Origin: Candidatus Latescibacterota bacterium
GTDB lineage: Bacteria > Latescibacterota > UBA2968 > UBA8231
DNA: 64,000 nucleotides
NCBI GenBank assembly: GCA_965197905.1
Contig: CBDAOB010000003.1
Location: forward strand, 768,001 to 832,000
Direction: 5' to 3'
This document shows positions 1 to 9,639 of this stretch, piece after piece. The notes below the pieces were generated by a model. The model saw nothing but the letters and a program-made list of their open reading frames with translations. It was not told where the DNA came from and ran no database searches. A program made the translations under genes and the position numbers. Each line of letters starts with the position of its first letter. Within the stretch, counting starts at the first letter, position 1.

Positions 1-3000
1 ACCGTCGAATCGCCCGGTTTCAACGGTGCCCTTGCCGAGGAGGTGGGTGGCCTCCTGGAAGAGGCCGGCCTGCCGCGCAGCGGCATGTTGCGGCTGCGCG
101 ACGGGCGCACCGGACAGCTCTTCGAGCGCGAGACGACCGTCGGGTATATCTACTACATGAAGCTGCACCACATGGCCGAGGATCTGATCAAAACGAGGCC
201 CGCCGGCCCAATGACCACGGAGGAAAACCCCGAGAAACCGCAGGGATATCGGCTGGGCATCATGGAAACCTGGGCTCTGCAAGCTCACGGCGCCGCACAC
301 ATGTTGCGCGAGATGTCGACGGTACAAGGCGGGCAGGAGCAGGAGGTGACCTACGACGCCCTCGTGCACGGGGTTGATTTTCCGCCGCCCCAGCCGACCC
401 AATCTATTGCCAGGCTTGCCAGGCAGCTGCGCGGGCTCTGCCTCGATCTCCAGCTGCACGACGCCGGCGGTCATCAAATCAGTCTGAAGGAAGCGGGAGA
501 AGCGCCGGATCTGGATGCGATCGAGATGGCATCCGTAGAATTCGCAACATCGCAGACCGTCGATAGTTGGGGAATCGTAACCGAACTTCCGGACGCGACG
601 GCAGTGGAAGCGTTTTTGCAGGGCGATGCCCGAGACGGTGTAGGTCTGATCCCGTTGGCCTGTCCGGTACTGCACCCCTGGCGAACCATGTTGCCCGCGG
701 ATACGACGCCATCGGAGATTGCCAAGCTTCCAGTGCTGGCGCGATCCCTGAGGAATGGGCGCGCCCACGATTCGCTCTATCTGGCGCTGGCAGCCGTGAA
801 CGACATCGTGCGGTCGGATGATACCTCCGACCACGAAATCCGCACGGCACTCCAGGAGGCGGTGGACGAGCTTTTCGGCGACGGCGGCGGCGGCGATGGC
901 TTGAATCGATTGCTCTACGGGAAGCGTGGTTGGTTTGCCGCCGCAATGACCGGAACTAGGGTGGACTACTCGGGCAAGGCGGTCATCGCGCCAGGACCGA
1001 ACCTGCTCCAGGATGAATGCGGACTGCCGCGAAGAATGGCACGTTCTTTGTTCGCGCCATTCGTGGTCGGAGCCTTGTTGCGAGCCGGGAAAGCGAAGTC
1101 GGAAGAGGAGGCGCGCCGCATGATACGAGACGGGCGCGCCGAACGAGAGCTGGACGAGATTGCCTCGACGAAGCTGGTACTGCTACACCGGGCGCCGGTC
1201 CTGCACCGCTGGGGCATTCAAGCGTTCAAGCCGGTGTTGACCGAGGAGGAGGTTCTGCGGCTGCACCCGCTGACCAACGTGACCTTCAACGCCGACTTCG
1301 ACGGCGATGCGCTGGAGGTGTTCCTCCCTCTATCCGCTATCGCACAGCGCGAAGCGCAGGAGATGAGACCCACCAACAACCAGTTGGGCTCGGCCGACGG
1401 CACCTACATCCACGGCTTGAGCCAGGAGATGGTATTCGGTTGTTATTACGCGACCGCCGCGACCGCCACGGAGAAGCCGGTAATTGACCTCGCCAGCACG
1501 GACGCGGTGGCGGCCACCTTCGACCGCGGAGACGTGCGCATTCATGACCCGGTGAGAGTAATGGATGGGAGCTCACGCATTTCATCCGTGGGTCGCGTTT
1601 TGTTCGGTCAGCTGCTGCCGGATGGGTTGGAATGGACGGACGGGCAAGTCGACAAACGGGCACTGAAGGACCTGCTCGATCGGTGTTGGCACCAGTTGGG
1701 CCCCCCGTCTGCTGCCGAGCTGGCGAACGCAATGATGGTTTTCGGCTTTCGCATGGCAACCCGGTCAGGCGTATCGATCGGCAAAGACACCTATTCTCAG
1801 TTCAGCGGCTACGACGAGATGCTCGCCGCCGCGTGGCAGCGTGCGGACGAGCTCGCGGCCACCGACAACGACGAGCAAAGGATCGTCGATCACTGGATGG
1901 AAGTGCGTGATCGAATGACCGTGCAGGCGTTGGAAGAGCATGCCGCCATAGAGGACGGTCTCAATCCGACCCACATGATGGTTGTATCCGGAGCGCGGGG
2001 CAATTCGAATCAGCTGCTCCAGCAGATCGCCATGCGTGGTCTTTTTGTGCGCCAGGACGGTTCCCTTTATTCGATCCCATGTACGACCACCAACGTGCGG
2101 GGACAAAACCCGCTCGAGTTCCTTGCGGGGGTTGAAGGAGCACGCCGAGGTCTGGCGGATTGCACCTTGAAGGCTGCGCGCTCAGGATATCTCTTCAAGA
2201 GGATCGTCAGCTCGGTACAAGACGTGTTGATCACCGAGGAGAACTGCGGCACCGATGCCAGCCTGGAAAAACGGCCGCTCCGTGTGCGCCAGCGGGAAGT
2301 GCAAACGCTTGAGAACCGAATCGCCGGGCGGTTTGCCGCCGCCGATATCCTGTTTCCGGGAAGTAAAGCTCCGATCGTGGCGGCCGGGAACCTGATTGGC
2401 AGAGTTGAAGCTGCCGAGATTGGAGAAAGTGCCGTCGAGTCGGTTCTCGTTCGCTCGCCCATAACATGCGAATCCTCACGGGGCGTCTGCAGCAAATGTT
2501 ATGGGGTCGAGCTGAGCCGCTGGTCGCCGGCGACGGCCCACCTGCCGGTCGGTATCATCGCTGCCCAATCACTGGGCGAGCCGCTGACGCAGCTCACCAT
2601 GCGGTCGTTCACCTTGTCGATGCAGGGACAGCCTCCATCTGCAAACATCATCGCCAGCCTACCTGGACTGGAGGATTTGTTCGAGGCGGGCAAAAGACCC
2701 GGGAAGGAAGCATCGGAACTGCGAACCGCTCTGGTCGAGATGCTGGAGAAGGAAGGTTCGGGGTGCGCAGGAGCCTACCTTCTGGACGCGGTGCTCCTGC
2801 ACTATCGCAACATGGGAGTTCCCCTCGACGACAGACACCTGGAGATCGTCATCCGTCGGATGGTCCGTAGCGACGGGATCGACAGTGGACCGACTATCAG
2901 GGGCGTGACTGAAGTTGCGCGTCAGGGCAACGACTTCATGACGGCGGCGGTTTCCTTCGATGGAGTAGCCGCGCTGGCGCGGGCGGCCGCCAGCAGCCAA

Positions 3001-3066
3001 CGGATGCACCTGGATGGTGTGAGCAGCAGCACCGCTTTCGGCAAGCTTATGCCTGCAAGGGTCTAG
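1..3066 (+). CDS. rpoBC: Divergent fused DNA-directed RNA polymerase beta-beta' paralog (5'-partial; streamlined beta')
   Basis: Frame is open from base 1 (TVESPGFNGA..., matching RpoB 'ATPVFDGA'). RpoB C-terminal motifs DGRTG, GYIYYMKLHH and GIMETWALQAHGAA run without a stop into RpoC motifs RVDYSG, HRAPVLHRWGIQAF, NADFDGD (1288-1308), SGARG, GARRGLAD..SGYL, EENCG, RSPITC..GVCSKCYG, GIIAAQSLGEP.TQLTMR, DDRHLEIVIRRM and GKLMPA. Confidence 0.93.
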   Translation, partial: TVESPGFNGALAEEVGGLLEEAGLPRSGMLRLRDGRTGQLFERETTVGYIYYMKLHHMAEDLIKTRPAGPMTTEENPEKPQGYRLGIMETWALQAHGAAHMLREMSTVQGGQEQEVTYDALVHGVDFPPPQPTQSIARLARQLRGLCLDLQLHDAGGHQISLKEAGEAPDLDAIEMASVEFATSQTVDSWGIVTELPDATAVEAFLQGDARDGVGLIPLACPVLHPWRTMLPADTTPSEIAKLPVLARSLRNGRAHDSLYLALAAVNDIVRSDDTSDHEIRTALQEAVDELFGDGGGGDGLNRLLYGKRGWFAAAMTGTRVDYSGKAVIAPGPNLLQDECGLPRRMARSLFAPFVVGALLRAGKAKSEEEARRMIRDGRAERELDEIASTKLVLLHRAPVLHRWGIQAFKPVLTEEEVLRLHPLTNVTFNADFDGDALEVFLPLSAIAQREAQEMRPTNNQLGSADGTYIHGLSQEMVFGCYYATAATATEKPVIDLASTDAVAATFDRGDVRIHDPVRVMDGSSRISSVGRVLFGQLLPDGLEWTDGQVDKRALKDLLDRCWHQLGPPSAAELANAMMVFGFRMATRSGVSIGKDTYSQFSGYDEMLAAAWQRADELAATDNDEQRIVDHWMEVRDRMTVQALEEHAAIEDGLNPTHMMVVSGARGNSNQLLQQIAMRGLFVRQDGSLYSIPCTTTNVRGQNPLEFLAGVEGARRGLADCTLKAARSGYLFKRIVSSVQDVLITEENCGTDASLEKRPLRVRQREVQTLENRIAGRFAAADILFPGSKAPIVAAGNLIGRVEAAEIGESAVESVLVRSPITCESSRGVCSKCYGVELSRWSPATAHLPVGIIAAQSLGEPLTQLTMRSFTLSMQGQPPSANIIASLPGLEDLFEAGKRPGKEASELRTALVEMLEKEGSGCAGAYLLDAVLLHYRNMGVPLDDRHLEIVIRRMVRSDGIDSGPTIRGVTEVARQGNDFMTAAVSFDGVAALARAAASSQRMHLDGVSSSTAFGKLMPARV

Positions 3067-3111: not shown

Positions 3112-4086
3112 TCAAAAAGGAGACTTGACCCCCAGCTCCATGGCGATGCGCTCCAACGCCACCTGATGTTCGGGACCCACGGGAATCCCATGCCGGCGGT
3201 TCTCCTGCTCCCACCGCCATTCGGACCCCCCGGCCACTTCTGCCCCGTCTGACCCGGGCAAAGGCTCCAGAGTTCGGACCTCCGCGACGTACCGGTCCAC
3301 CGCCTCGCACAACTCGTCCAGCGGCATGAAGTGGCTGATATCGACGACCAGAATGAAGGATCCCTGGTTCGATTCCCATGGAGAATCTGGCGCTCGGAGG
3401 TCAGGCTGGTAGATCCCCGGGAATACCCCGCCCAACAGTTGAACGATGTTGCTCAGTCCCATGGCTTTAAAGAACGGAAACGGGTTTTCGACACATGAGG
3501 ATTCGTCGAAAGAGAGGAAGCTACTCCCCATGTCTAGAACTACCGGAGGTTGATTCTTCGTGGGGAACGCAACGCTTACGGGTGAATTGGTCACCGTGCT
3601 AAATATCGATTCTCCCGCTTCCCGGGAGGTCCGATGGGAGGACACCGCCATGCCGATGCAACCTGCCGACAGAGCCAAGCGAGTATAGTTACCGGCTGCC
3701 CCGAAATGATAGTGGTTTCGCGTTGTCAGCGCGGCAACGCCACTCGCCCGTGCTTTCGTTATCGCCCGCTGCGTACCCCGATAGCAAGGGAAATACCCCA
3801 ATCCTCCATCCCCGTCGATGACCAGGGCACCTGTTGACTCGCTGACGTCTCGAAGCTCGGGACGCGGATTCACGGCCCCTGTGGCTATCTTGCGAACATA
3901 ATCGGGAATCTGCAGCGTTCCGTGGCTGAACACACAGCGAAGATCGTTCGCTACGAGCAACTCACTCATCAGCAGCGCATCCTCGTGTGTGGTGCCGGCG
4001 CGCTCGAAAAGTTGAGCGGTAAAGCCATCCATGACCTCGCGCGGTATTCGAACGCCGGTTTCAGGAGGCCGATTCTGTTTCGCCAC
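3112..4086 (-). CDS. Ldh_2 family NAD(P)-dependent oxidoreductase (malate/L-lactate/sulfolactate dehydrogenase-like)
   Basis: Motifs ANDLRCVFSHG, IDGDGGLG, RNHYHFGAAG, NSPVSVAFP..VVLDM are typical of the Ldh_2 family. Confidence 0.85.
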   Translation of the reverse strand: MAKQNRPPETGVRIPREVMDGFTAQLFERAGTTHEDALLMSELLVANDLRCVFSHGTLQIPDYVRKIATGAVNPRPELRDVSESTGALVIDGDGGLGYFPCYRGTQRAITKARASGVAALTTRNHYHFGAAGNYTRLALSAGCIGMAVSSHRTSREAGESIFSTVTNSPVSVAFPTKNQPPVVLDMGSSFLSFDESSCVENPFPFFKAMGLSNIVQLLGGVFPGIYQPDLRAPDSPWESNQGSFILVVDISHFMPLDELCEAVDRYVAEVRTLEPLPGSDGAEVAGGSEWRWEQENRRHGIPVGPEHQVALERIAMELGVKSPF

Positions 4087-4612: not shown

Positions 4613-5008
4613 ATGCCCAAACCACCTACATCCGATGTCCAGCAAGTCATTCAAGGGGCGCCTGTCGTTCAGGTCGAGAGCCCGCAAAAGACCGCGGAAT
4701 ACTATCGCGACGTGCTCGGATTCAAGTTCGATTACGGTACCGATGACTACGCCGTCGTCTGGCGCGACAACGCCGCCATTCACTTTTTCAAGGGCGAAAA
4801 ACCTGCTTCAGGGATAAAGATCTTTCTCTGGGTCAAGAATGCGGATGAGGTGCGCTCTGAACTCGGGAAAACGGGCGCAAAAATATCGGTCGAAGTCGAC
4901 GATCGCGACTACGGCATTCGTGATTTCGGTGTCACCGATTGCAACGGCCTCGAGCTGGTGATAGGCCATGACCTACATTGGAGCCCAGATGAATGCGCGG
5001 AATCCTAA
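4613..5008 (+). CDS. VOC (glyoxalase/bleomycin resistance) family protein
   Basis: YYRDVLGF and DRDYGIRDFGVTDCNG motifs; ATG 4613 follows GGAGAGG. Confidence 0.8.
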   Translation: MPKPPTSDVQQVIQGAPVVQVESPQKTAEYYRDVLGFKFDYGTDDYAVVWRDNAAIHFFKGEKPASGIKIFLWVKNADEVRSELGKTGAKISVEVDDRDYGIRDFGVTDCNGLELVIGHDLHWSPDECAES

Positions 5009-7250
5009 ATCCACTCTGGTGACATTAGCACTGGCCGCGTGCTGGATAGGGTCGCCAGTTCCTGCTCAGGAGATCGACGATCTCCTCGAGTTCTCCTTGG
5101 CAGAGCTGGTGGAGATGGATGTCACACTGGCCTCCGGCATCGAGGAGAGCATCTTCGACGCACCGGCGGCGATGGTGGTGATAACCGACGAGGAAATACG
5201 GCAGAGAGGATACACGAATCTCGCCGAAATCATTACCGACCTTCCCGGCTTCGACGTGGTGCTCGCCAACGGCATTCCCTACCTCTACGCCTATCAGCGG
5301 GGTTACAGACACCCCTCGACGCAACGCACTCTACTGATGATCGACGGACACGTCGACAACCACCTGTGGACACACCAGGCCGTCTTCAGTCGGCGATTTC
5401 CGGTTTCCAGCATCGAACGCGTGGAGGTGCTCTACGGACCGGCATCCGCCATTTACGGTCCCAACGCGTTTCTCGGCATCGTCAATATCGTAACCCAGGA
5501 TGGCAGCGAACTGAGGGACGCTGGTTATACCAGCAACATTCGAATTCATGGAGGCAGCTTCGACTCAAAGGGTGTGGACGTTTCAGTCAGAGGCAAGGTA
5601 GGTGCTGTCGAAAGTGGCGGCGTCTCCTTCGGCTTGGCGGGGCGTGTTTTCCGCAGCGAAGAGCCGGATTTCTCGAACGACTTCGGCTTCATCAGCAACG
5701 AACTGTATTCCGATGCCAATACGTGGGGTCCGATTCTCGATCTGGAACACCGCAATCGCAGTTTCGGGACCTACTACGATCCCACCGACGACAGTTCGAT
5801 TCTCGGTAACGTGAGCTACAAAGGCGCGAAGCTCGGCTTCGTGCACTGGGTCAGGAAGGAAGGCTACGGTCCCCACTATGTTGCCGACCGCGTACAGAAC
5901 AACATTTTCTGGAATTCCTCGGGAACACAGATTTACGGTGAGACTGAAAAACGCGTCCACGACAGACTGGTCAGCAGCTCCCTGTTGTCCTATCGGACGA
6001 GCCGAACGTGGGGAGGCTGGCCGGAAGCGTTGCCCGACTGGCGCGAGGGGATGCAAGACTTCTCGTTCGTCAGTCTCACCCAATGGAACTCGATCAGCGA
6101 CAGCTGGCTTTTCAAACAACAGTTCGAGGCCGCTGCGACCGACGATCTGGTACTGACCGGTGGACTCAAATTCGAACGCAAAGAACTCACGAAAGCGTAC
6201 GACATCCCCGGCTACTGGGGCGCATTCAGCTCCACCGTGCCTTCGAACGACCCCGGTCTCCACGGACAGGGTGCCGGTATCGGACACAGCACGGATTCTA
6301 CCTACGCGGCACCACCCCCACCCAACCCCAACATGCCACCGCAAAACCTGGCATTGACCGAAGACATTGGAGGATTCGTCCAGGGGATCTGGAACTGGGC
6401 GCCGTTTCGATTCAACGCCGGACTTCGCTATGACGACAATTCGCTCTATGGCAACTCGATCAACCCGAGGGTTTCAGCCGTTTACCACTTCTCATCCCGC
6501 AGCGCGTTCAAGTTGCTCTATGGAGAAGCGTTCCAGGAGCCGGCGCCGATCCAGGTTTGGGGCGGATGGAACGGCCGCCTGGCCAACCCCGACCTGGAGC
6601 CTGAGAAAGCACGCAACATCGAGGCGATCGCCATGTATCAGACCGACCGGATCTTTCATGACGCCTCCCTGTTCTTCTCACACTATGAAGACGTGATCAA
6701 GGAAGAGGCCGAGAATGCCGGAACGCGGGATATTTGGGGCCTCGAGTACCGTGGTCGTTTCACCCTGCCAAACCTGCTCGTCGGCGCTCCCGACATCAAC
6801 GGATTCCTCTACTATTCGTTCACCAGTGTGAAGAGCAGTACCCATTTCGATCATGAAGCGGGTCGGTGGGAGGACGGCGACACCGACCTGGGAGACATTG
6901 CTCCGCACAAAGTCAATCTCGGCCTCAACCTACCCGCCGCGAGACACTGGAACTTCAACCTGAGAGCCAACTTCGTGGGCGAACGCAAGCTTTACTCGCA
7001 GAATCCCCTGCGGGCACGCGGAAGAGCCGTGGACAGCTACGTAGTGGTCAACGGCGCAGCGTCCTACAGCGTCGGCGTTTTCGATCTCACATTGAAGGTG
7101 ACCAACCTTCTCGATCGCTCTTATTTCCACCCCGGCGTGGAGCAGGCGGATAGCGGAGATGACTTTAGTCAGAGGAGCCTGGGGTTTCGGAACTCGCTCA
7201 TCCCCCAGCCGGGTCGCTCCTTCATCTTGAAGCTGGGCATCGCCTACTAG
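4989..7250 (+). CDS. TonB-dependent receptor
   Basis: Signal peptide, 'LLEFSLAELVEMDV' leader, plug motif IERVEVLYGPASAIYGPNA, NPDLEPEK, C-terminal GRSFILKLGIAY. Confidence 0.9.
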   Translation: MNARNPKSTLVTLALAACWIGSPVPAQEIDDLLEFSLAELVEMDVTLASGIEESIFDAPAAMVVITDEEIRQRGYTNLAEIITDLPGFDVVLANGIPYLYAYQRGYRHPSTQRTLLMIDGHVDNHLWTHQAVFSRRFPVSSIERVEVLYGPASAIYGPNAFLGIVNIVTQDGSELRDAGYTSNIRIHGGSFDSKGVDVSVRGKVGAVESGGVSFGLAGRVFRSEEPDFSNDFGFISNELYSDANTWGPILDLEHRNRSFGTYYDPTDDSSILGNVSYKGAKLGFVHWVRKEGYGPHYVADRVQNNIFWNSSGTQIYGETEKRVHDRLVSSSLLSYRTSRTWGGWPEALPDWREGMQDFSFVSLTQWNSISDSWLFKQQFEAAATDDLVLTGGLKFERKELTKAYDIPGYWGAFSSTVPSNDPGLHGQGAGIGHSTDSTYAAPPPPNPNMPPQNLALTEDIGGFVQGIWNWAPFRFNAGLRYDDNSLYGNSINPRVSAVYHFSSRSAFKLLYGEAFQEPAPIQVWGGWNGRLANPDLEPEKARNIEAIAMYQTDRIFHDASLFFSHYEDVIKEEAENAGTRDIWGLEYRGRFTLPNLLVGAPDINGFLYYSFTSVKSSTHFDHEAGRWEDGDTDLGDIAPHKVNLGLNLPAARHWNFNLRANFVGERKLYSQNPLRARGRAVDSYVVVNGAASYSVGVFDLTLKVTNLLDRSYFHPGVEQADSGDDFSQRSLGFRNSLIPQPGRSFILKLGIAY

Positions 7251-7350: not shown

Positions 7351-9639
7351 GTGGTCAACCTGAGTCAGTCCAGATCCCGTTCTCCTTCGAGGGCGGGTTT
7401 TTTAGCGCCCGCCCGATTTTGTGCCCCGGCTTTTCTTGCGCTCTTATCCACCTCCGCCTTCTGTGGTACGATCAGCGGCCGGGTCTCTGAGAGCAGTACC
7501 GATCTGCCCATCCGTGGCGCCGTGGTTCGCATTCAATCTTCATCCCCGCATATGCTCGGCGGCTCAGCTCTTAGCGATTCCACCGGAGCGTTCGCATTTC
7601 GTGGGCTTGAAACGGGCGACTGGATGCTGTCGGCGAAGATGGTCGGCTATCGGAGCTGGCGGCGCGCCATCTCGCTCAATCGGGAGCCGAGTGTGGTGGA
7701 AGTGCAGCTGGAAACCCAGCCGCTGCGCATGGAGCCTCTGGTCGTGTGGGCGCAGCGAGGCGAGGATCGTCATACCCCGGCCTACGTGGAAACCATACCA
7801 ATCGAGACCTTGCAGGCCCCCGGCGCCAATCTGGCGCAAGCCCTTGATGTTGCGACAAACGTCAATGTCCGGCGCTATGGCGGTCTCGGCAGTTTCAGTA
7901 CCGTCTCGATTCGCGGCTCCACCTCCGAACAGGTTCAGGTCTACCTGGATGGCGTGCTCCTCAATCAGGCGCTCGGCGGCGGCGTCAACCTGGGCAACCT
8001 GCCGCTCGCCGGAGTCGAAAGTGTGCAGATATACCGAGGCGCAACGCCCGCCCGGTTCGGCGGCAACAGCCTGGGCGGTGTCGTGCACTTGCGCACGAGT
8101 TCCTTGTCGCGATCCAAGAAGACCTATGTCCGCACGACGGCCGGTTCCTTCGGAACCCGTCACCTAGACGCGTCCGTTGCCGGCCCCTTGCAACGTTGGG
8201 AATACCTGGCATTGGCCAATCTCAGTACCAGCAAGAATGACTTTCGCTTTTGGGACGACAACGGCACCGCCTACAATTCGAACGACGACGGCTGGGCGCG
8301 CCGGGCCAACAGCGATTTTCAGTCGTTCCGTCTGCTCACGAAACTCGGCCGGCGTCTCGGTGAAAAACTCGTTCAGGTTCACAACACGCTGGATCTGAGC
8401 CATTCCGGGATTTCTGGAATTGGCGTTCATCAAGCCAAACACACCCGCTTGGACTCGTGGCGCAAGCTGTCGGAAGCCAACCTGCACGGCACTCTCGTCC
8501 GGGGGTTTGGCGGGTATGCGGTCAGGGCGTACCACTCCATCCAGACCAGCGAATACAAGGACCTCAAGAATGAGATCGGGGTCGGCACCCAGCATAACCG
8601 CAACACGACGACAAGCGTCGGCGTTCGCGGTGAGATCACTGGGATCATCCCGGGCCGGGGACTTTTCACCCTGTTTGGGTCCGGGTTGTACGAAAATTTC
8701 GAACCCGTGAATCTGATTCAGTCAACCCGGAAATCGATACGCAGCCGTCGCTACCGATCTTCATTGGGCGGCGAAATTGAATCGCTACCTCTGCTCCAGC
8801 GATTCACGTTGACGGCTGGCGCCCAGATCGAACGACTCGACAACCGTCTGCTGACCCACCAGGAGGTCGTGACCACCGCCCTGGAACGTGGCCGGCACGA
8901 CACAGAGACAGTTTGGGGATTTCGAATCGGAACGGGAATAGAGCTGGCCGAAGAGGTGCATCTCAAGGCACATCGGGGGCGGTATCAGCGTCCGCCCAAT
9001 TTCTTCGAGCTCTTTGGCGATCGCGGTTCCGTCGTGGGCAATCCGGACCTGGCGAGCGAGCGAGGCGAGAAATGGGACGTGGGTTTGGACGTTCGCAACG
9101 CTCTGGGGGGGGTCGTGCGACGCGGCGAGTTGGTGTATTACAGGAATTCCATCGAGAACCTGATCCGCTTCGTACAAAGCACGCAGCAGGTGTCTGAACC
9201 GCACAACATAGACGAGACTGCACTCAGCGGACTGGAAACGAGATTCAACATTCGCGTCGATTCCCGCTTGAGTCTGGGGGGAAATTATGTGTATCAGCGG
9301 GCCAGGAGCCGCGCTCCCTTTTCCTACGAAAGAGGAAATGACCTCCCGAACGCTCCACGTCATAGATTCGGCCTCGAATTGAGTGGCAGTTGGTCGGGAA
9401 ACGGTTTCCGCTACTCCTTCAACCGCGAAAGCAGAAGTTTTATCGACCGCGCCAATCTCAATCCAGTGCCGGCGCGTTCGGTGCACGGGATTGGTATCGA
9501 TTTCCCATTGATGGAGGGTACCAAGATAACCATGGAGGTGCGCAATCTCGGAAACAACCAGATTGCCGACGTGTGGGGATACCCTCTTCCGGGAAGGTCT
9601 TATTTCATCTCGGCGGCACTGGAACGCCCGTCAAACTGA
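7351..9639 (+). CDS. TonB-dependent receptor with N-terminal carboxypeptidase-regulatory-like domain
   Basis: GTISGRV..PIRGAVV N-domain; plug motifs SIRGSTSEQVQVYLDGV and VQIYRG; GNPDLASE; C-terminal GYPLPGRSYF. Start codon uncertain. Confidence 0.88.
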   Translation: MVNLSQSRSRSPSRAGFLAPARFCAPAFLALLSTSAFCGTISGRVSESSTDLPIRGAVVRIQSSSPHMLGGSALSDSTGAFAFRGLETGDWMLSAKMVGYRSWRRAISLNREPSVVEVQLETQPLRMEPLVVWAQRGEDRHTPAYVETIPIETLQAPGANLAQALDVATNVNVRRYGGLGSFSTVSIRGSTSEQVQVYLDGVLLNQALGGGVNLGNLPLAGVESVQIYRGATPARFGGNSLGGVVHLRTSSLSRSKKTYVRTTAGSFGTRHLDASVAGPLQRWEYLALANLSTSKNDFRFWDDNGTAYNSNDDGWARRANSDFQSFRLLTKLGRRLGEKLVQVHNTLDLSHSGISGIGVHQAKHTRLDSWRKLSEANLHGTLVRGFGGYAVRAYHSIQTSEYKDLKNEIGVGTQHNRNTTTSVGVRGEITGIIPGRGLFTLFGSGLYENFEPVNLIQSTRKSIRSRRYRSSLGGEIESLPLLQRFTLTAGAQIERLDNRLLTHQEVVTTALERGRHDTETVWGFRIGTGIELAEEVHLKAHRGRYQRPPNFFELFGDRGSVVGNPDLASERGEKWDVGLDVRNALGGVVRRGELVYYRNSIENLIRFVQSTQQVSEPHNIDETALSGLETRFNIRVDSRLSLGGNYVYQRARSRAPFSYERGNDLPNAPRHRFGLELSGSWSGNGFRYSFNRESRSFIDRANLNPVPARSVHGIGIDFPLMEGTKITMEVRNLGNNQIADVWGYPLPGRSYFISAALERPSN

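Follow-up and report, generated by a model that had tools for sequence, protein, structure and literature searches.

What kind of RNA polymerase is encoded at the very start of a 64,000-nucleotide (nt) stretch of Candidatus Latescibacterota DNA (hereafter the window; positions 768001-832000 of contig C3 in the genome that we call G000)? The frame 1..3066 (+) is open there from the first base to its stop, over 1021 codons, and the original prediction saw in it a single-chain beta-beta' paralog of the cellular enzyme, an uninterrupted frame joining the end of RpoB to an RpoC-like part through the linker HDAGGHQISLKEAGEAPD. The frame and its Pfam domains, Rpb2 followed by Rpb1, bear out this description, and the gene is indeed a paralog. 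It is not beta-beta' only: a fused alpha N-terminal domain, lying upstream of the window, makes the protein a triple fusion, one chain in which an alpha N-terminal domain precedes shortened forms of beta and beta-prime. Judged from its sequence, this protein is probably an accessory, self-contained and minimal core of a cellular-type RNA polymerase, made as a single polypeptide. Alignments show that the motifs forming the two-barrel active centre are retained; the gene is maintained by purifying selection, and its family is small, old and patchily distributed.

Architecture of the fused gene

The window cuts the gene, of which the 1021 C-terminal codons lie inside and the ATG start 2688 nt upstream. 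The full gene has 1917 codons (G000:C3:765313-771066, or L013:13313-19066 in locus coordinates) and encodes 1917 amino acids (aa), about 58% of the residues in the alpha2-beta-beta-prime of the same genome. Residues 20-197 match PF01193 (RNA_pol_L) and PF01000 (RNA_pol_A_bac) above cut-offs and constitute the alpha N-terminal domain. The Pfam beta domains Rpb2_3, Rpb2_6 and Rpb2_7 span residues 423-1011, and the beta-prime domains Rpb1_2 to Rpb1_5 residues 1282-1769; within the window these are the end of beta (Rpb2_6, Rpb2_7), then Rpb1_2, Rpb1_3, Rpb1_4 and Rpb1_5. Eight of the nine families pass the Pfam cut-off, Rpb2_7 falling slightly below it (31.7 vs 32.1 bits), and matches reach an E-value of 1e-79. 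Both barrels score far above their thresholds, with 266.7 bits for the beta-type PF00562 (cut-off 23.4) and 88 bits for the beta-prime-type PF00623 (cut-off 25.3). Rpb2_1, Rpb2_2, Rpb2_45, Rpb1_1 and the alpha C-terminal domain (PF03118) have no Pfam match in the 1917-aa protein. The gene is preceded by a GGAGG Shine-Dalgarno sequence in an AT-rich leader of 125 nt, which also holds a promoter-like TTGCCT-17-TATTAT. Among the sequencing runs listed as containing the gene none is an RNA run, which argues neither for nor against its expression.

The RpoC part, first estimated at about 850 aa with an NADFDGD motif, measures 851 aa with the motif at 1288-1308. The beta half, which was to be sought upstream on the contig, proved to be whole though reduced, with the alpha domain in front of it. 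As to a sigma- or alpha-like domain or gene, fused or adjacent, alpha is fused and no sigma gene adjoins the fusion gene in G000. The main features are as follows, with window coordinates for those that lie inside it.

Residues 1-~200 (+), upstream of the window: alpha N-terminal domain
Residues ~201-235 (+), upstream of the window: linker with one helix
Residues ~236-1048 (+): reduced beta, from the alignment to the genome's own RpoB
1..456 (+), residues 897-1048: C-terminal part of beta, from Pfam (Rpb2_6, Rpb2_7) and the alignment to own RpoB
457..510 (+): beta/beta-prime junction linker HDAGGHQISLKEAGEAPD, from the translation; sequence variable across the family
511..3063 (+), residues 1067-1917: reduced beta-prime, 851 aa (Rpb1_2-5; own RpoC 219-915 and 1182-1322)
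760..876 (+), residues ~1150-1188: shortened clamp-helix coiled coil, from the alignment and two model helices
1288..1308 (+), residues 1326-1332: NADFDGD catalytic aspartate motif, invariant in 7/7 members
2137..2226 (+), residues ~1609-1638: bridge helix, closely resembling that of own RpoC
2245..2499 (+): four invariant cysteines, C1645, C1719, C1726 and C1729, aligned with four cysteines of own RpoC
2575..2691 (+), residues 1755-1793: short trigger loop without lineage insertion, from the family and own-RpoC alignments
3064..3066 (+): stop codon of the fusion gene

The canonical subunits are found on contig C5 of G000, where rpoB (1262 aa) is directly followed by rpoC (1362 aa). The open reading frames (ORFs) flanking this pair correspond, judged by size only, to rplKAJL upstream and rpsL/rpsG/fusA/tuf downstream, and a separate rpoA (338 aa) is also located on C5. 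The alpha insert domain is matched by just two genes of G000, this rpoA and the fusion gene. Because separate rpoA, rpoB and rpoC genes are present on another contig, the fusion gene is not the housekeeping polymerase, in agreement with the original view that this is not the main enzyme. The NCBIfam models for alpha, beta and beta-prime all match the fusion protein (E 1e-26 to 1e-237), which stays below every equivalog cut-off tried, be it for housekeeping RpoB (TIGR02013, 638.8 vs 801.15; NF001616, 657.4 vs 896), RpoC (TIGR02386, 486.3 vs 963.5; NF011498, 376.6 vs 1437), RpoA (TIGR02027, 93.7 vs 227.8) or the housekeeping beta/beta-prime fusions (NF007172, 789.8 vs 5372; NF011417, 741.9 vs 4632).

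Could the gene be an assembly chimera of rpoA, rpoB and rpoC fragments? G000 is a metagenome-type assembly (6.69 Mb in 5 contigs, 91% complete, 4.5% contamination), which would leave room for such an artefact. We give it next to no credit: contigs from three studies (Logan) bridge both junctions without gaps or indels, the alpha-beta junction being spanned by X1 record 1 and X6 record 24, and the beta-beta-prime junction, the one originally proposed, by X1 record 6, X3 record 10 and X6 record 27. Several metagenomic collections, and other genomes too, show the same architecture, and the modules share just 31-45% identity with the genome's own rpoA, rpoB and rpoC.

Active centre, lost elements and selection

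The anatomy of the fusion was established by alignment against the RpoA, RpoB and RpoC of the same genome, and for structural elements (lobe, flap-tip arm, clamp helices, rudder, jaw and so on) we use names that we take to apply from bacterial RNA polymerase structures. From RpoA, only the N-terminal domain aligns (own RpoA 30-220 with fusion residues 20-197). Residues 236-358, 372-799 and 808-1051 of the fusion correspond to own RpoB 13-151, 393-878 and 1006-1256, and two large segments are deleted: RpoB ~148-390 (~240 aa), presumably the beta lobe, and RpoB ~879-1005 (~125 aa), which we take to be the flap-tip arm with a lineage insert, six residues alone bridging the two flap strands. In beta-prime, where residues 1097-1768 align with own RpoC 219-915, the losses comprise the zinc-ribbon segment, ~120 aa of the clamp (own RpoC 113-235), the large trigger-loop insertion, the jaw (RpoC ~1110-1180) and RpoC ~1227-1260; the clamp-helix coiled coil is ~16 aa shorter than in own RpoC and the rudder that follows it 11 aa shorter. 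A shortened alpha loop was considered as a possible sign of an alpha that binds beta only, the own RpoA having a longer ..RVGRRTDYDKL.. at this place, and was rejected, two of four ordinary RpoA being equally short.

The catalytic motifs have been spared. In an alignment of seven family members (45-83% identity), NADFDGD, NFED (N703-D706), GDK..RHG.KG (833-844), the bridge-helix residues, the trigger-loop GEP.TQLT.R.F and the four cysteines, which we take to be the second zinc site, are invariant in all seven. This bears on another possible reading of the gene, as a protein that has given up catalysis and serves to titrate or scaffold transcription factors such as sigma factors, alpha or omega. 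Such a role would accommodate the replacement of the trigger-loop histidine and of one beta histidine, the remodelling of large regulatory surfaces and an evolution faster than that of housekeeping genes. We hold it to be distinctly improbable because a scaffold would not need invariant catalytic motifs, and here the NADFDGD aspartates, NFED, GDK..RHG.KG, the bridge helix and the four cysteines do not vary at 45-48% identity. Moreover, the elements that we assume to make the main sigma contacts are the very parts trimmed or lost.

For residues 1-1060, spanning alpha and beta, AlphaFold gave a model with a mean local confidence (pLDDT) of 76 and a template modelling score (pTM) of 0.76, whose best Foldseek matches are bacterial beta chains (E 1e-61). 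Beta-prime modelled alone reached pLDDT 72 and pTM 0.43, with two clamp-region helices at model residues 110-128 and 133-148. A predicted complex of the fused alpha domain (1-240) with the housekeeping alpha (1-240), run without controls, scored 0.11 and 0.07 and weighs neither for nor against such a pairing.

Selection was measured between G000 and the same-genus genome G098, whose fusion proteins are 83% identical. The ratio of nonsynonymous to synonymous substitution rates (dN/dS) of the fusion is 0.219 (dS 0.43) and lies between 0.18 and 0.33 in each of seven segments, alpha domain included. For the same pair, seven neighbouring genes have values of 0.03-0.27, canonical rpoC 0.033 (dS 0.47) and rpoB 0.047 (dS 0.39). 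The dN/dS of the fusion is about five times that of rpoB and rpoC, which fits the original description of the gene as fast-evolving, and yet, at 0.22, it lies far below 1: the gene is clearly constrained.

A decaying duplicate on its way to loss could itself be rare and evolve at five times the dN/dS of rpoB/rpoC, and the 90% cluster of the G098-type protein does include split forms. We nonetheless find this highly improbable. At least four distinct sequences (83-100% identity) have the 1917-codon frame undisrupted, intact frames are also found in relatives at 45-50% identity, constraint extends to every segment, and the deletions are common to the clade and not random. Composition was said not to look foreign, and this holds: the GC content of the fusion is 0.619 (0.584 for the genome), its GC at third codon positions falls at the 53rd percentile among 1781 long ORFs of G000, and its codon usage is the closest to the genome mean among 112 ORFs of at least 1000 aa.

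Relatives and origin of the family

We searched 5.8 billion clustered proteins for the same architecture and retrieved it in P0004 (83% identity) and P0006-P0010 (43-47% identity, 1946-2081 aa), along with truncated pieces and a larger relative, P0012. A profile of alpha and the beta N-terminus, run exhaustively against 1.84 billion representatives, yielded among its best 150 matches seven proteins of 1948-2309 aa, over a background of ordinary alpha subunits of ~320 aa. Pfam splits the long chains into two types. The reduced type of the window includes P0062 and P0065; the less reduced type (P0012, P0068, P0075, P0081, P0107) has retained Rpb1_1, along with some domains out of Rpb2_1, Rpb2_2 and Rpb2_45. 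Orthologs with the same deletions thus exist, as had been anticipated: P0004, P0006-P0010, P0062, P0065 and the ortholog of genome G150 have an identical Pfam order and share the deletions.

Among 168 genomes of the phylum, four carry the triple fusion, namely G000, G098, G150 (50% identity) and G154 (two pieces at contig ends), and all four belong to one family; about ten metagenomic clusters carry it beyond these genomes. Matches with an E-value of 1e-50 or lower exist in 162 of the 168 genomes and, besides the four fusions, correspond to canonical beta/beta-prime. A JGI metagenome scan with the pattern LYGKRGW[FI], which is narrower than the family, produced 133 matches, of which 4 were confirmed, all on contigs of at most 2.6 kb, and a GTDB-wide scan with generic patterns gave one true ortholog among the 80 loci listed, G154 not being among them. 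The only public label on family members is the JGI annotation 'DNA-directed RNA polymerase beta subunit'. No fusion was found in G097, a genome of the same genus that is 89% complete, where the DNA surrounding the fusion matches only at FliG (76% identity).

Two trees address the origin of the modules. Of the 41 rows in the beta-prime tree, 10 belong to the window's type, 5 are less reduced fusions, one is a mini-fusion described below and 25 are chosen canonical sequences; the beta tree has 32 rows, P0008, P0009 and the mini-fusion being left out. In the former, all canonical RpoC, including that of G000, form one clade (support 99) and the window's type one group (94); the latter agrees, with values of 99 for the canonical clade and 100 for the window's clade. 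In both, the less reduced fusions branch between these two clades, and on these alignments the single-chain alpha-beta-beta-prime family is monophyletic. Since both trees agree, the beta and beta-prime modules share one history. The original suggestion that the gene derives from cellular rpoBC needs qualifying: from its placement outside the sampled canonical subunits, the family is not a recent duplicate of Latescibacterota rpoBC.

The less reduced relatives suggest how the platform formed by alpha was handled along the way. Behind the alpha domain, P0012, P0068, P0075, P0081 and the fragment P0078 have a further module of ~90-110 aa; in P0068 and P0078 Pfam identifies it as the Rpb11-type dimerisation domain, RNA_pol_L_2. 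These proteins seem to carry both halves of an alpha-type platform in cis. One short helix is left at the place of the module in the window's clade (residues ~204-214). A separate metagenomic protein, P0069 (664 aa), contains the alpha insert domain, the dimerisation domain and a stretch of the alpha C-terminal domain twice each, and looks like a covalent tandem alpha-alpha.

Does the family instead descend from a mobile element or a virus, being retained for its use in genetic conflict or in transcribing the element itself? Its patchiness in the phylum, its lack of synteny past the genus and its position outside the canonical clade in both trees would be expected of such a polymerase. Jaw, flap tip and zinc ribbon are surfaces that phage inhibitors target on the host polymerase, and their loss would give an inhibitor-proof back-up. 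Viral contigs are rich in single-chain or compact beta/beta-prime (291 confirmed stretches with P0012 as query), a PcfJ-like ORF lies 4 kb upstream of the fusion gene, and an M78/IrrE-like ORF adjoins it in G154. Like the fusion, the IMG/VR phage polymerases have a reduced beta/beta-prime, in compact two-gene form or as fused chains of 2056-2302 aa. They differ from it at the N-terminus: an alpha-led N-terminus was confirmed in none of 141 stretches on viral contigs, all 78 viral loci found with P0012 start at a query residue of at least 321, and PF01000/PF01193 are present in none of the eight viral proteins scanned. Identity is 24-36% between P0012 and the viral forms, as against 35-39% to canonical subunits. 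The codon usage is native, PHROGs returned generic polymerase beta families only, and no integrase or defence genes appeared in the Pfam and PHROGs scans of the ORFs tested (PADLOC was not run). We therefore regard a mobile or viral ancestry as unlikely. One viral locus, L184:3688-12288 (+), encodes a single-chain beta-beta-prime of 2,867 aa with a LAGLIDADG_3 match inside beta-prime, possibly an intein or a homing endonuclease insert.

How does the fusion compare with other cellular-type polymerases? With the canonical alpha2-beta-beta-prime-omega core it has in common homologous alpha N-terminal domain, beta and beta-prime in the same motif order, as well as both barrel active-site motifs, the bridge helix, the trigger loop and the four-cysteine site; unlike that core, it consists of one chain, in which alpha is represented once and lacks its C-terminal domain. 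Natural full-length beta/beta-prime fusions are known in Helicobacter and Wolbachia. These show the same covalent order from beta to beta-prime, and the corresponding profiles, NF007172 and NF011417, give the fusion's best E-values; however, the profiles (~2840-2890 positions) describe housekeeping enzymes without fused alpha, whereas the fusion coexists with separate rpoB and rpoC. Within the phylum (G034:C71, G001:C137, G041:C1, G071:C1 and most of genus g31), open frames of ~2,640-2,730 aa contain many of the canonical rpoC matches, and rpoB and rpoC may read as one there, a possible housekeeping fusion; in G000 the two are separate open frames of 1266 and 1384 aa.

A third polymerase paralog of G000, P0002, is a beta-beta-prime mini-fusion of 1019 aa (G000:C5:903590-906646 (-); L014:7590-10646) in which Pfam recognises Rpb2_3, Rpb2_6 and Rpb1_2 only. 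It too is an extra single-chain polymerase paralog, but has no alpha, is half the size of the fusion and sits on a very long branch. The gene for a sigma factor of the extracytoplasmic function (ECF) type, L014:10607-11203, lies directly upstream and overlaps its start. The mini-fusion family occurs in 65 of the 168 phylum genomes, compared with four for the triple fusion.

More distant single-chain enzymes have also been described. YonO, from the Bacillus SPbeta prophage, is presented as a protein of ~100 kDa with very distant homology to multisubunit polymerases, which are themselves said always to share a five-subunit core (PMC5467207), and the crAss-like fused polymerase is presented as too divergent for the COG hidden Markov models of that study (PMC7481178). 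Both are, like the fusion, single polypeptides related to multisubunit polymerases that exist alongside the host enzyme, and the same descriptions set them apart from the fusion, with its ordinary Pfam matches and alpha domain. The presence of Pfam-level beta, beta-prime and alpha domains argues for a lineage distinct from YonO and far less diverged. We found no natural alpha-led or alpha-beta-beta-prime fusion in the literature searched, supplements and subscription papers being outside its scope.

Genomic setting and possible role

The gene next to the fusion is a convergent Ldh_2 dehydrogenase at 3112-4086 (-), as first noted. Synteny with the G000 locus is limited to the same-genus G098 and was not seen beyond the genus. 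Ldh_2 stands beside the fusion in G000 and G098 (L111:48-737) and 2.5 kb upstream of it in G154 (L113:7280-8326); the family is expanded, with ~15-20 loci per genome in G000, G098 and G150, and its proximity could be either ancestral linkage or chance. Further downstream in the window, two ORFs of ~760 aa, 4968-7250 (+) and 7351-9639 (+), resemble by eye TonB-dependent outer-membrane receptors, and the counterpart of this region in G098 holds a Plug/CarboxypepD_reg protein. On the other side of the fusion gene, the ORF with the PcfJ-like domain (L013:7009-9021 (-), 670 aa; two ORFs in G098) overlaps by its 5' end a divergent lone FliG gene, L013:8894-9940 (+), which is 99% identical between G000 and G098.

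What might such a protein do? As an accessory enzyme, the fusion would polymerise RNA on a nucleic-acid template. Its alpha domain would act as the beta-bound alpha, and the covalent linkage would replace the assembly platform provided by the alpha dimer, so that a second alpha or platform subunit might be dispensable. Deprived of jaw, zinc ribbon, flap-tip arm and a large part of the clamp, and with its clamp helices trimmed, it probably initiates and terminates differently from the canonical enzyme. It would probably make weakened use of the standard sigma contacts, or none; initiation may depend on a different factor, take place at ends or nicks, or proceed from primers. The task served is probably narrow and dispensable.

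Several observations weigh against an active accessory polymerase. The trigger-loop histidine that follows ..RTF is a threonine in the fusion; over the seven aligned members, the position is Thr in the fusion and P0004, Tyr in four and His in one. The beta histidine of own RpoB D.IHAR is replaced by lysine, and the loop aligned with own RpoB GPYSLVTQQPLGGKAQFGG is degenerate. Several of the lost elements are required for sigma-dependent initiation and hairpin-dependent pausing, and ordinary promoter-driven transcription is doubtful because they are gone. Occurrence in 4 of 168 genomes shows that the fusion is dispensable, and the fusion neighbourhoods of the family's genomes contain no conserved partner gene that would point to a pathway. 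The split forms mentioned above come from strains nearly identical to that of P0004 and consist of two pairs, P0211 + P0213 (1-1010 + 1012-1919) and P0212 + P0215 (1-341 + 346-1919), each on a single contig and matching the intact protein at ~100% identity; the breaks may reflect either disrupted alleles or errors in long-read assembly. Finally, the position in the trees, which include seven named canonical phyla and no archaeal outgroup, could in part reflect long-branch attraction.

A bolder scenario can be drawn from the less reduced relatives. The fusion may be the end point of a series leading from alpha2-beta-beta-prime to a single chain with alpha and an Rpb11-like module, and from there to alpha-beta-beta-prime; it would then be a self-sufficient single-chain RNA polymerase, with no second alpha, omega or standard sigma contacts, devoted to an orthogonal transcription or priming task in a free-living bacterium with three such polymerases. 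We put this forward tentatively, and as a whole it remains rather doubtful.

If the protein is indeed an accessory single-chain polymerase core, it tells us what evolution has treated as dispensable in the bacterial enzyme, and covalent linkage can stand in for the alpha platform. Together with its less reduced relatives, it would then provide a stepwise natural series for the assembly of a polymerase. A cellular-type polymerase encoded by one gene is a possible tool for orthogonal transcription. For the bacterium itself, the fusion raises the question of what role a second, here a third, RNA polymerase may play.

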